A DNA stretch of 25,280 nucleotides from Candidatus Nanohaloarchaea archaeon (GTDB lineage Archaea > Nanohalarchaeota > Nanosalinia > Nanosalinales > Nanosalinaceae): NCBI GenBank assembly GCA_042217695.1, contig JBDGSE010000012.1, positions 1-25,280 of the forward strand, read 5' to 3'. The position numbers were made by a program. Shown here piece by piece: positions 3,001-6,000 of the stretch (the first letter of the stretch is position 1; each line of letters opens with the position of its first letter).

Positions 3001-6000
3001 TGCCCGGTTCAAGCGGGTAGTCTTCGAGTATAGCGGTCGCGTTGTCGCCCTGCACTCTGGTCAGGTCAACCGTTGGAGTCCCGTTGAAACCTACCACGGT
3101 GAAGCCTCTGCTGGAGTTAGTACCGTTCCCGGCGGAGTGAATCCTCATCCTCGAGAAGGACACGTCCAGCTTCCCGAACTGCCCGATAGCGGACGGCCGG
3201 TCGGATATAAGCAGGCTGAACTCTCCCATCGAAACTCCTTCCCCGTCCGGAGTGCCGGAAGGGTTGAACAGGAAGAACAGCAGTACCAGTACAACAGCGG
3301 CACCCGCAACAAGGTAACCGGTTTCGATCTCCATGATAACTTCTTGGATTCCCTGCCTGATAAATGAAGGGGTAAAAAATAAACGCCGGCGCCCGGATTA
3401 CTGAACGAACTGCCAAGCGAAGCAGTTCACAGTTCTAAACAACAGAACAAAAAACGCCGGCGCCCGGATTTGAACCCGAAGCTCGCCGCAAGGGAGCTTC
3501 TAAAATCAAATCCAAGCTTAGGCGTGAAACGCCGGCGCCCGGATTTGAACCGGGGAGGGACGGGTATGTCCCAGCAGATACTTCGGAAACTTCTGAAAGT
3601 TTCATCATCATAAACCGCACTCCGCCTTGCTCCGGCGGCTTCCGGTTTACTCTGCGCATCTGCCGAAAGCCATGCATCGCATGGTTTGACATGATCGAAC
3701 TTTGTGAAGTTCGCTCGAATCTGCCGCGTTCGGCCTGACTCCGCCACGCCGGCGTGATGTAACTCTATGAGGTGTAGGGTGCGTGAAGTTTTAATAGCTG
3801 AAGGATTTTGGGTAGAGCTTAAAGTCTTTCCCCTCTTAACAGGGGTTATGCGCTACGGTTCAGTGATCTTTGACATGGACGGCGTGATACTGAATTCGCT
3901 GGTGGAGAACGAGAAATGGAAGTTTGACGCGGTACGACAGGCGTTAAAGGAGAAAGGGGTCGACCCGGAGGGCATGGACCGGGACGAACTGAGGGACATC
4001 CTCGGGGACAGAGGTTACTCTGCGGTCGTCAAGAAGTCCTCGGAGCTCGGCCTGAATCCGGGAGAGATATGGCAGCGAGTGGCGGAAACCACGACCCATG
4101 CCCGGCTACAGCAGATCGAGGACGGGAAGTTCGAGCTTTATCCGGGTGCGAAGGACGCTATAGAGCATCTATACGATGAAGACACCCAGATGGCGGTCAT
4201 AAGCAATGCGCCGGAATCCGCGGTGGAGGCCACTATGCGGATGTTCGACCTTAAACAGTACTTCGAGTTCTACCTTGGCGTGAGAAACTTCGAGGATCTA
4301 CAGGTGCGGAAACCTAACCCCAACCACCTGGAGCTGGCAAAAGCGGAGCTGAAGAGAGATCCGATGGCCTACGTCGGTGACGCGGAAAACGATGTAAGGG
4401 CCGCGAAGCGAGCTGAACTGGCATCTATCTGGGTGAACAGGGCGCGCGAGGAGATCGATATTGAGCCGGACTACGAGATGCAGAGGCTTGAGAGGCTTCC
4501 GGAGATAGTGGACGGTTCTAGCTGATGTATTCGACAAAAGATAGTTCTCCAAGGTCTTCCCTGGCGACCTCCTCCCATTCCTCACCCCATTCCGGAAAGT
4601 AGCTGTCGCCCTCGTACTCTTCATGTATCTCTGTCAGGACCATCCTGTCCGCCTCGTCGAGAGCCTGCTCGTAGACCGAGGCACCGCCCGCGACATAGAC
4701 CTGGTCGTGGCCCTCCGCGAGTTCCCATGCCTCTTCAAGGTCTCCGGCTACTTCTGCGCCGTCGAGTTCCTCCAGTGTCTCGGATAGAACGATGTTGTCG
4801 CGGTTGTCCAGCGGCCTGTACTGCTCCGGTATCGACATGTACGTTCGACGCCCCATCACCACAGGGTTCCCGGTAGTGGTCTCGCGAAAGTGCTGCATGT
4901 CCTCCCGGTAGTGCCACGGTATGTCCCCGTCTTCTCCTATGACACCGTTCTCGGCTACCGCCGCGATTATTATCTTCTCCATGTTATTCCGCCACCTCGA
5001 AGTTTATCCCGTCGTACGGGTTGTATCCGCTAAGTTCAAAGTCTTCGAACTCCAGGTCCTCGAAGTGTCTGTCCGCTATCTCGAGTTCAGGGCGTTCCCG
5101 GGGTTCCCTGGAGAGCTGGAGTAGAAGCCCGGGCACATGATCGTAGTCCTCCTCTTCTTCCTCAGGCGCTTCCTCGAGCAGCCAGTCCCTGACCTCCAGG
5201 AATTCGTCACGGTCATCGACTCCCGCGACCCTCTCCTGTAACTCCTCCAGGTTTTCGTCTTCGGAGTACCATTCGGCGCGGTCGCCTTTACCCAGGTAGA
5301 TGTGCGCGTCGTCTATGGTGTGACCGAGTTCGCCCTCCTCGAAACCTGTCTCGTTCGACATTATCTTTGTCATTATGGAGTAGCCGGCGATGTTGAACGG
5401 GATTCCCAGGGCGATGTCACCTGAACGTTGCGTGAGCGAGACGTTTAACTCGTCGTCGATAACGTTCGGGTGGAACGTGTAGTGGCAGGGCGGCAGTCCC
5501 GAGGCGGCAGCGTTCGCCGGGTGCCAGGCGTTTATCGGCAACTGGCGGGAGTACGGATCTTTCTCCGGGTTTTCGCCGTTCAAAGTATCGATGACGTAGC
5601 CGAGCTGGTCAAACACCAGCGAGCCGTCCTCCTCGGTTACCCAGGGACTTCCCTCATCGACCCAGGTCTCGCCGTCGAGCTGTGCCCCCTCTTCAGGGAC
5701 GGGATAACGCCTCCAGAACCGTCCATACGCGGTGTCGAGGTGTCCCTCTTCGTCGGCCCATTCGTCCCAGATACCGGTCTCCTCCCGCAGGTTGCGTATG
5801 TGTTCCTCGCCGGAGAAGTACCAGAGTATCTCGTGTATCAGCGAGTTCCACCGGAACCCGGACAGATCTTTAGTGGTCAGAAGCGGAAACCCGTCGTCCA
5901 GGTCTATCCTGTAATGCTGGTTGGGTGCCGCTAAAGTAGGCACATCAGTCCGGTTTTGTTCGTAGCTTCCGTTTTCGAGAACGTCTTCAACAAGTTCATG

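Follow-up and report, generated by a model that had tools for sequence, protein, structure and literature searches.

At many tRNA genes of a salt-lake nanohaloarchaeon, miniature non-coding cassettes were found that each terminate in a copy of the end of the adjoining gene, and relatives in its family carry the same unit of about 75 nt. The locus that was followed up lies in the window, the whole stretch of 25,280 nt that was analysed, where a tRNA-Ser(CGA) gene is followed by two such cassettes. The arrangement is best read, with about an even chance of being right, as the outcome of small cassettes having been inserted serially and site-specifically at conserved tRNA loops.

The tRNA-Ser(CGA) locus

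No tRNA was detected in the window by ARAGORN in default mode or by Rfam, because the gene carries a long intron. ARAGORN with the intron option detected the gene and mis-called it Arg-tct. At the anticodon, the outer helix CGGCAGA/TCTGCTG and the central helix TTCG/CGAA, with the bulges AGC/GTA, make up a bulge-helix-bulge (BHB) splicing motif, which gives the anticodon CGA and an intron of 134 nt. Five relatives (L002, L003, L007, L011 and L012) have intron-less genes at the corresponding loci, which ARAGORN names tRNA-Ser(cga). The anticodon BHB and these calls rule out Arg-UCU and bear out the identity that the initial annotation had assigned by eye. The features of the locus, all on the minus strand, are the following.

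3530..3753, minus: tRNA-Ser(CGA) gene, type II, 224 nt with intron (ARAGORN with intron option; ends curated by T-loop and 7/7 acceptor pairs; orthologues called tRNA-Ser(cga))
3714..3753, minus: exon 1, nt 1-40, ending one base past the anticodon CGA (BHB scan)
3580..3713, minus: canonical BHB intron, 134 nt, composed of hairpin modules (BHB scan; inverted repeats from the repeat search)
3586..3610, minus: intron module TGATGATGAAACTTTCAGAAGTTTC (by eye)
3530..3579, minus: exon 2 (BHB scan; sequence)
3527..3551, minus: the gene's own repeat copy, T-stem/T-loop to discriminator (3530) plus TTT (repeat search)
3506..3525, minus: inverted copy of the tRNA 3' end, 20 nt, with the core GGATTTGA at 3506-3513 (repeat search; minimum-energy fold)
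3478..3500, minus: constant hairpin of module A, 7-bp stem GAAGCTC/GAGCTTC and 9-nt loop (pattern comparison among instances)
3452..3476, minus: copy 1, an exact 25-nt direct repeat of the tRNA 3' terminus (3455-3476 being tRNA sequence); T6 follows at 3449-3454 (repeat search; end-anchored test)
3407..3428, minus: hairpin of the second spacer, GAACTGC...GCAGTTC (read from the sequence)
3384..3399, minus: copy 2, an exact 16-nt direct repeat of the tRNA 3' terminus; a T-rich run follows (repeat search; end-anchored test)

The repeat search returned three copies in register, at 3527-3551, 3452-3476 (100% over 25 nt) and 3381-3405 (76%), the second of which includes three T beyond the discriminator. 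The three 3' ends claimed by the initial annotation were thus found, and its distances of 51 and 130 nt stood; its lengths of 25 and 17 nt became 24 and 16 nt in the end-anchored test, the former being 25 nt exact by repeat search. The two spacers, of 51 and 55 nt, are non-coding. The inverted arm at 3506-3525 is 75% complementary to both full direct copies and pairs with the distal copy in the minimum-energy fold. A stretch of 121 nt was calculated to fold with -53 kcal/mol (z = -3.7), and none of 200 shuffled sequences was equally stable. By eye, the intron module TGATGATGAAACTTTCAGAAGTTTC was also seen immediately before other tRNAs of this genome, and in two relatives, G016 and G047, it precedes the Ser-CGA orthologue in the same way.

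A 174-nt Logan contig from run X1, which may be the source sample, covers positions 3384-3556 with three changed letters and one gap. A strain in run X2 has 164 extra letters directly 3' of copy 1.

End copies in the genome and in a relative

Copies were counted by a strict rule (at least 11 nt, at most one mismatch, end-anchored, within 300 nt). Copies of the own 3' end were found for 9 of the 20 tRNAs of this genome with at least 100 nt of flank, against 3 of 440 pairs in the cross control; both counts of the initial annotation were reproduced, and the three cross-pairs are those it had named. Under the same rule, 5 of 23 tRNAs have a copy of their own 5' end (contigs C3, C6, C12, C17 and C31). 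The corresponding cross control gave 9 of 506 pairs, mostly tRNAs with common 5' ends. Diverged copies at C19, C24 and C28 are visible by eye.

In G016, a closed genome of another genus, own-3'-end copies were detected for 8 of 35 tRNAs versus 4 of 1190 cross-pairs. No copies in the wrong orientation were found in this genome, either 3' copies upstream (0/35) or 5' copies downstream (0/35). The end copies are specific and oriented, and between a quarter and a half of the tRNA genes counted have them in these two very small genomes. An assembly artefact is ruled out by the Logan contig of run X1 and by the same pattern in a closed genome of another genus. The end-copy observation is real and confirmed.

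The unit of about 75 nt

The recurrent unit (module A) consists, in this order, of the tRNA tail, an inverted T-loop copy, a constant hairpin, a T-loop and the host's own tail. Its exact pattern was found in 18 of 50 family genomes, with one to five copies each, directly 3' of at least ten different tRNAs. A T-loop lies at most 140 nt upstream in all 25 instances with enough upstream sequence, and five further instances start too near a contig end for this check. At 23 loci the upstream tRNA was named by ARAGORN as Ser (four anticodons), Arg-TCG, Arg-GCG, Leu-CAA, Leu-AAG, Tyr or Pro, the window tRNA being mis-called as Arg among them. The pattern scan and these calls agree with the earlier claim that unrelated tRNAs share the same modules.

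From T-loop to T-loop the period ranges over 67-86 nt; it falls within 72-79 nt for 21 of the 23 distinct instances. The bases 3' of the constant part match the upstream tRNA through its discriminator in 16 of the 23, and in the remaining seven the constant part is followed by another module or by the contig end. The duplication is 13-37 nt long and anchored to the tRNA end; the direct repeat extends 14-16 nt beyond that end in two of the 23 instances. Fourteen of 17 3' spacers contain an inverted T-loop copy, in every case at a distance of 13-22 nt into the spacer. On the 3' side only, inverted and direct target copies can fold into a stem beside one junction. The by-eye impression of a mirror-image inverted copy in the 5' modules was rejected, since it appeared in none of 10 at 8/9 matches or more, no better than in shuffles.

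The inner stem of module A is invariant, with 7/7 pairs in 17 instances. In the outer helix, two host-specific positions have changed in a compensatory way, and pairing beyond about 10 bp is only 40-50%. By eye, the last bases of the tRNA form a stem of 4-6 bp with the trailer that tracks the discriminator (GGCG/CGCC, GGCGA/TCGCC and GGCGC/GCGCC), and a U-run after the copy is not general among the modules. Variants of the hairpin loop are common to the copies within one genome, and one 34-mer variant is identical in six genomes of five genera, after different tRNAs.

The module is missing from about half of the tRNAs, and also from the orthologous Ser-CGA genes of G047, which belongs to the same genus as G016, and of G005; it is dispensable. 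At the Leu-AAG and Leu-CAA loci the same two modules are present in permuted order, and the distal copy downstream of Leu-CAA (C28) is of the Leu-AAG type. The same short modules that lie beside end copies are located at the start of the canonical introns of four tRNAs and build the long tRNA introns of these organisms. Searches of phage and plasmid collections with the module gave chance-level matches only (best E 0.04). The idea that it is a decayed tRNA or a K-turn was dropped, by eye, because of poor fit.

Larger cassettes and candidate enzymes

The repeats form a continuum from hairpin modules to kb-sized cassettes. In G016, tRNA-Pro-TGG is followed by a 0.9-kb cassette with MNT/HEPN genes and a copy of tRNA nt ~21-73, and then by a 2.2-kb ParD/ParE cassette and another copy. 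After tRNA-Pro-GGG of the same genome, two mini-modules precede unannotated cassettes of ~0.7 and ~0.95 kb, both terminated by T-loop plus tail in copy. Cassettes bounded by the repeats in G016 thus measure 0.7-2.2 kb, and toxin-antitoxin genes are present in the two at Pro-TGG.

Tyrosine integrases (PF00589) gave no match in the genome studied (G000, 83% complete) and two to four matches in each of four closed relatives searched. None is inside or physically linked to any mini-module. One integrase of G016 is encoded ~0.7 kb downstream of tRNA-Thr, for which no distal att repeat was found within 40 kb. Cas1 (PF01867) was detected in only 3 of 41 relatives and was not found in G000, G016 or G017, all of which carry modules. 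Among five genomes, IS200-type TnpA (PF01797) had no match and TnpB (PF07282) none above the cut-off. Reverse transcriptase (PF00078) was detected in one of the five (G019) and was not found in G000, G016, G017 or G001, which does not favour retro-insertion of processed RNA.

Working copies and splicing

Where copies differ, according to the initial annotation, the proximal one keeps full acceptor/T-stem pairing. Among the 3' copies the proximal one is the working copy, making 7/7 acceptor pairs in 23 of 23 curated tRNAs. This is not always so: in G017, by eye, only the distal 3' copy gives perfect pairing with the 5' acceptor strand. In tRNA-Gly(GCC) of four genomes (G016, G047, G046 and G010), the true exon, which the tRNA needs, is the 22-nt distal 5' piece, and the gene-proximal copy is a decayed part of the intron; removal in silico of 51-59 nt yields a canonical 72-nt tRNA in all four. 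In these two genera the 5' duplication is one that has turned into an obligatory D-loop intron, with splicing predicted from sequence.

In G000 and G016, no BHB was found that would connect corresponding positions within a pair of 3' copies, even when the central helix could contain one mismatch, and none was found for the 3' copies of G017. BHB splicing of the 3' spacers was rejected under strict and relaxed search settings alike, and these spacers are therefore trailers, not introns. For the 5' copies, a BHB with the correct product was identified in 3 of 12 cases, namely Lys-CTT in this genome and Leu-GAG and Gly-GCC in G016, and in the other nine no BHB yields the right product. Some 5' duplications can, judging from these motifs, be spliced. 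A splicing endonuclease (PF01974) is encoded in 39 of 41 genomes, including G000, as a single gene of ~185 aa that is presumably of the strict-motif type, given its size. A tRNase Z gene is also present in this genome. Loss of RNase P as the cause of the 5' modules was discarded: RF00373 gave nothing credible in G000 but significant sub-threshold matches in four of five closed relatives.

Origin of the cassettes

The proposed insertion model builds on the repeats, the constant unit after many tRNAs, the host-specific tails, presence and absence within a genus, and the larger cassettes with the same boundary repeats. Under this model, the window would be one instance of a habit found throughout Nanohaloarchaeota, in which the ends of tRNA genes serve as landing pads for successive cassettes. 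Each addition would rebuild the stretch from a loop to the gene end (T-loop to discriminator on the 3' side, nt 1 to D-loop on the 5' side), so that the gene would be kept whole and the extra terminus copy would mark the far side of the cassette. The cassettes would span from non-coding hairpin modules of ~50 nt, as in the window, up to 0.7-2.2 kb with toxin-antitoxin genes. The cassettes would most likely be moved by a tyrosine-type recombinase that acts in trans and recombines site-specifically at the conserved loops; the ~75-nt unit (tail, inverted T-loop copy, hairpin and T-loop) would be the smallest piece that is mobile or carries att. What we infer in this model is the recombinase, the direction in which events ran and the way in which the tails come to match each host. 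At the RNA level, the 3' cassettes would be trailer, removed by a tRNase Z cut after the proximal discriminator, and some 5' duplications would be excised as BHB introns.

Several observations weigh against insertion. Classical att sites leave the host-specific inverted copy in the spacer unexplained, and a double-stranded circle of 75 bp would, by our reasoning, be too small for ordinary integrase chemistry. If the crossover took place in a shared loop, the tRNA body would end up beside a foreign tail; every proximal tail, however, fits its tRNA, and the model therefore needs a further step such as gene conversion. For the Leu-AAG-type copy at C28, copying between paralogous loci is a better explanation than simple integration. 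The direct repeats that pass the tRNA end, the missing integrase in the incomplete genome G000 and the tRNA-Thr without distal repeat point in the same direction. Some of these facts would follow from local replication errors without a dedicated recombinase, a minor possibility. Template switching at palindromic hairpins by tRNA ends, seeded by the T-loop-like sequence at the hairpin foot, would produce inverted and direct copies, and gene conversion through the conserved loops would spread them. The placement of the inverted copy, the compensatory changes in the outer helix, the duplications that run into the trailer in L079 and L083, and the permuted Leu modules with their foreign tail agree with this, as does the failure to find Cas1, TnpA of the IS200 type and TnpB in the genomes checked. 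However, a constant hairpin, a period of ~75 nt and strict placement after at least ten tRNAs in many genera are hard to obtain randomly, and slippage does not make kb-sized gene cassettes with the same boundary repeats.

The 3' modules could also be functional RNA: a stable trailer hairpin, with the tRNA-end copy closing it and a U-run after it, would serve to terminate transcription, to process the 3' end or to protect the pre-tRNA. The stability of the 121-nt fold, the T6 after copy 1, the outer-helix covariation around an invariant inner stem and the tRNA-end/trailer stem that changes with the discriminator speak for such a role, which we nevertheless consider unlikely: the module is lacking at the orthologous genes of G047 and G005 and missing from about half of the tRNAs, the U-run is not general, pairing weakens beyond ~10 bp, and in palindromes that arise by copying such covariation would be expected even if there were no selection. 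That the distal copies are, as a general rule, real exons, with the spacers cut by the splicing endonuclease as T-loop or D-loop introns, is quite improbable. It would suit tRNA-Gly(GCC), the Lys-CTT and Leu-GAG motifs and the pairing in G017, but the 3' copy pairs and most 5'-copy cases are without a suitable BHB, the proximal ends all make 7/7 pairs, and the single small endonuclease is, as we assume, of the strict-motif type. Insertion by Cas1 in the manner of casposons or CRISPR, with the tRNA end as duplicated target, has hardly any likelihood; arrays that repeat a 13-25 nt target at the tRNA 3' end resemble tandem casposon insertions as we know them, but Cas1 is rare among the relatives and was not found in the module carriers G000, G016 and G017.

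Comparison with known systems

The insertion model places the cassettes near known mobile elements, and tRNA genes are well-known targets of integrating elements. As in such elements as we know them (attL/attR, tandem accretion, integrase-less cis-mobilizable remnants), direct repeats of the 3' part of the tRNA bound the insert and the gene stays intact. Several inserts are stacked after one tRNA, the two cassettes at Pro-TGG of G016 carry toxin-antitoxin genes, and tyrosine integrases are encoded in relatives. The present inserts differ in being mostly non-coding and of 45-130 nt, in the constant ~75-nt unit after many tRNAs, in the host-specific inverted copy, in the duplications at 5' ends and in the share of tRNA genes affected.

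Attachment sites of CTX phage, attP(+), and of integrons, attC, are, to our knowledge, also alike in combining an inverted and a direct target copy with a short spacer by one junction, able to fold into a stem that mimics a double-stranded target, and in cassettes that form arrays, some with toxin-antitoxin genes. The target here is a tRNA gene instead of dif or attI, and the direct repeat has 13-25 nt instead of a 7-bp core, and no enzyme of the IntI or Xer type was linked to the units; a single-stranded intermediate is a feature of those systems. A tentative and on the whole unlikely extension would regard the ~75-nt units as folded-hairpin recombination sites whose inverted and direct copies mimic the T-arm duplex of the target, in an integron- or CTX-like system on tRNA gene ends, with 5' or in-gene insertions as raw material of new BHB introns such as the D-loop intron of tRNA-Gly(GCC).

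Palindromic repeats of the MITE or REP type are likewise short, non-coding and multi-copy, with family-specific variants, and inverted arms and many copies are also seen here. The cassettes are distinguished by their strict link to tRNA ends and introns and by long host-specific flanking duplications (13-37 nt, anchored to the tRNA end); TnpA and TnpB were the transposase families searched, and neither was found. The literature searches turned up no account of such copies of tRNA ends beside the genes of Nanohaloarchaeota.

Archaeal BHB introns at non-canonical positions, and intron 'transposition', share with the present case the modules common to four canonical introns and to end copies, as well as the one 5' duplication that became a D-loop intron. 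Here, most modules lie outside the mature tRNA and are without BHB. We know of no described archaeal intron case in which exon duplication flanks the intron. The cassettes may show how some archaeal tRNA introns arise, and they offer a testable route for intron arrival, in which an insertion that duplicates exon sequence would first be removed at the RNA level, after which the redundant copy would decay. In two genera, the tRNA-Gly(GCC) intron resembles the last stage of such a series. The abstract of a 2026 preprint on Asgard tRNA introns still treats intron arrival as an open question.

The repeats also cause assemblies to break at tRNA genes. Standard finders overlook tRNAs that the repeats conceal, and the tRNA counts of these genomes are therefore too low.

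The tRNA-Ser(CGA) gene and the array behind it

The tRNA gene in the window was detected neither by ARAGORN with default settings nor by Rfam. When introns were allowed, ARAGORN returned a type-II tRNA with Arg-tct identity. This identity was rejected, because a bulge-helix-bulge (BHB) scan, calibrated with canonical introns of the source genome (G000), sets splice sites that give a CGA anticodon. Intron-less Ser-CGA genes at matching loci in five relatives were called tRNA-Ser(cga) by ARAGORN, and the Ser-CGA reading of the initial annotation, made against the program's Arg, is borne out by both results. 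The two 3'-end copies that it had described downstream are present: the 25-nt copy is exact, whereas the distal one measures 16 nt rather than 17 nt.

Features of the tRNA-Ser(CGA) array
3530-3753, minus strand: type-II tRNA gene with 134-nt intron (ARAGORN with introns; BHB scan)
3530, minus strand: discriminator, TTTCA directly downstream
3506-3525, minus strand: inverted copy of the tRNA end, 20 nt, after TTTCA
3478-3500, minus strand: 7-bp hairpin between inverted copy and copy 1
3452-3476, minus strand: copy 1 of the tRNA end, 25 nt, exact, then T6
3407-3428, minus strand: another hairpin, within the second spacer (55 nt)
3384-3399, minus strand: copy 2 of the tRNA end, 16 nt, then a T-rich run

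In an independent Logan assembly, whose run may be the source sample, a single contig of 174 nt spans 3384-3556. In Logan contigs of run X2, which holds a variant strain, 164 other letters replace 15 at 3439-3455, directly behind copy 1. Judging by these contigs, the population varies here by an indel placed at the boundary of the repeat.

Frequency of the copies

Using curated tRNA ends, copies of the own 3' end were found downstream of 9 of 20 tRNAs in G000, compared with 3 of 440 cross-pairs, which reproduces the strict count of the initial annotation. Copies of the own 5' end lie upstream of 5/23 tRNAs (9/506 cross-pairs). The whole sequence of G016, a closed genome of another genus (1,027,595 bp), gave 3' copies for 8/35 tRNAs (4/1190 cross-pairs) and 5' copies for 5/35; no wrongly oriented copies were found among these 35 tRNAs. 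Many G000 contigs begin (C1, C22, C27, C32, C37) or stop (C22, C28, C36) about 35 nt from a T-loop. This indicates that the assembly breaks at these repeats, as had been proposed, and that the tRNA set is incomplete; only 23 credible tRNAs could be called.

The whole G000 genome contains 31 perfect hairpins of the GAAG...CTTC type, compared with 0-11 in shuffled sequences; for 12 of the 31, a called tRNA is no more than 400 nt away. In G000 and G016, a 9-mer complementary to the T-loop/T-stem (at least 8 of 9 positions) occurs in 14 of 17 3' modules, always 13-22 nt into the spacer. A mirror-image inverted copy in the 5' modules was first suspected and then rejected, the same test giving 0/10. 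Where the direct copies differ (Ser-CGA of the relative G017, Asp on contig C24 of G000), the inverted copy agrees by eye with the distal one. The 5' acceptor strand of the G017 tRNA-Ser(CGA) (L002), GCCAGCG, has an A:C mismatch with its own 3' strand and pairs perfectly with the distal copy.

A module shared across the family

Ser-CGA loci in several genera share a unit of about 75 nt (module A), in which the tRNA tail is followed by the inverted T-loop copy, a constant hairpin, a T-loop and the host's own tail. Most have the same HAD-type gene sequence upstream, and the module copy follows each genus's own T-stem and acceptor sequence. A sequence search located the constant part in 18 of 50 family genomes, with 1-5 copies apiece, and a T-loop lay at most 140 nt upstream in all 25 instances with enough context. 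At 23 loci ARAGORN named the upstream tRNA: Ser (four anticodons), Arg-TCG, Arg-GCG, Leu-CAA, Leu-AAG, Tyr or Pro. The sharing of modules among unrelated tRNAs noted earlier is thereby confirmed. The distance from gene T-loop to copy T-loop was 67-86 nt, and 72-79 nt in 21/23 distinct instances.

In an alignment of 17 instances the inner hairpin is invariant. Among nine inner positions of the outer helix, eight are paired in 15-17/17 and the ninth in 10/17. Compensatory changes are seen at two positions that differ between hosts (GC 10, AU 2, CG 2, GU 1, UG 1; and GC 15, AU 2); farther out, pairing occurs in just 40-50% of cells. The repeat mostly ends at the discriminator or a few bases off. 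At two loci (L079, L083) it takes in a further 14-16 nt of trailer, so the duplication is made on DNA, without a tie to the mature RNA end.

Hairpin-loop variants are common to the copies of one genome, and one variant recurs unchanged behind different tRNAs in six genomes, which represent five genera. The orthologous Ser-CGA gene lacks module A in G047, congeneric with G016, and in G005. Candidate matches covering tRNA end, spacer and copy were also found in three genomes from two other families of the order. The unit, which these sequences place at several loci and genomes, may be mobile or convertible. Behind tRNA-Leu-AAG and tRNA-Leu-CAA of G000 (C17, C28) the same two spacer modules stand in permuted order, and the copy behind tRNA-Leu-CAA has the Leu-AAG T-stem.

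Larger cassettes in G016

Two tRNA-Pro genes of G016 are followed by longer arrays.

L020:16300-19750 (G016): tandem array behind tRNA-Pro-TGG, with toxin-antitoxin pairs

This array starts with a 0.9-kb nucleotidyltransferase (MNT)/HEPN pair, continues with a copy of tRNA nt ~21-73, its T-loop split by two small hairpins, and then with 2.2 kb that include a ParD/ParE pair. It is closed by another tRNA-end copy, located 3105 nt downstream from the end of the gene itself, and a PIN-domain gene follows shortly after. Behind tRNA-Pro-GGG, two mini-modules precede cassettes of ~0.7 kb and ~0.95 kb, both closing with the same short motif and a T-loop-and-tail copy.

Introns and splicing

A search of G000 with a 14-nt module found at the beginning of the Thr-CGT intron showed that it opens four canonical introns. 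It also stands directly behind the Thr-CGT 5' copy, directly behind a Ser 3' end at the edge of a contig and, inverted, outside the Leu-GAG 5' copy. Within the Ser-CGA intron of G000, a module at 3586-3610 (box-C-like TGATGA, then a GAACTT/AAGTTC hairpin) was noted; elsewhere it immediately precedes tRNA 5' ends (tRNA-Ile and tRNA-Leu on C2 and C31 of G000; tRNA-Ser at L071 and L098).

No BHB was found between equivalent positions in any 3' copy pair scanned. On the 5' side, a BHB yields the exact tRNA for Lys-CTT of G000, where two GGG|CCGG|TAG|CTC copies pair together, and for Leu-GAG of G016; the remaining scanned 5'-copy cases gave none, tRNA-Gly(GCC) being treated separately.

L101:1615-1775 (G016), L102, L104, L106: tRNA-Gly(GCC) interrupted after nt 22 by a non-canonical D-loop intron of 51-59 nt; four genomes, two genera

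In G016 the gene-proximal 5' end is degenerate (5/7 acceptor pairs, D-stem broken) and intact nt 1-22 were found 38 nt upstream, an arrangement kept in G047, G046 and G010. ARAGORN calls a defective 69-nt gene at these loci. Removal of the 51-59 nt in silico instead gave a canonical 72-nt tRNA-Gly in 4/4 genomes. The 3' part of the intron is a decaying exon 1 copy, and its hairpin is maintained by compensatory changes. On sequence comparison, the duplication has here turned into a predicted obligatory D-loop intron.

Enzymes and possible origin of the modules

The splicing endonuclease is a single gene of ~185 aa, present in 39/41 genomes, and tRNase Z is present in G000. The archaeal RNase P RNA (RF00373) was undetected in G000; 4/5 closed relatives gave significant matches below the Rfam threshold, so the RNA of this family is divergent. 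Endonuclease types and RNase P proteins in Nanohaloarchaeota are covered in PMC5829648 and PMC4919917. Cas1 was found in only 3/41 genomes and not in G000, G016 or G017, IS200-type TnpA in 0/5, reverse transcriptase in 1/5 (G019), and TnpB gave nothing above cut-off in five. No tyrosine integrase was found in G000 (83% complete); four closed relatives have 2-4 each. One in G016 lies ~0.7 kb downstream of tRNA-Thr-GGT, with no distal repeat within 40 kb. A 2025 preprint reports tyrosine integrases in spindle-shaped nanohaloarchaeal viruses.

The simplest account covering all observations is the serial insertion of small cassettes at conserved tRNA loops, for which we put the chances at roughly even. 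Every insertion would duplicate the stretch from loop to gene end, and arrays would accrete by analogy with known integrating elements. The classical integration model leaves the inverted copy, the 75-nt size and the host-matching of the tails unexplained; a hairpin-site reading, if shown, would be attractive for all three. The main rival, template-switch duplication at palindromes, is considered unlikely. A functional trailer hairpin ranks behind it and is slightly more doubtful still. Comparison systems include integration sublocations in tRNA genes, CTX attP(+), integron attC and casposon targets, and intron transposition in Thermoproteales is a comparison case.

Literature searches found no description of tRNA-end flanking copies; related work comprises PMC11782384 and a 2026 preprint on Asgard introns. 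Five haloarchaeal plasmids carry 24-nt matches (92%, E = 7) to the tRNA-end copy in unannotated stretches; these could be tRNA-like att sites or coincidence.

Ordinary genes surround the array (123-9648): ThiI, a hexapeptide transferase, DUF1405, DUF4382, two HAD hydrolases, DHFR adjoining thymidylate synthase, and a TtuA-like PP-loop protein. Among the named relatives of the thymidylate synthase, the best are those of Candidatus Nanohaloarchaea and Nanohalobium constans, and the stretch is present in salt-lake metagenomes.
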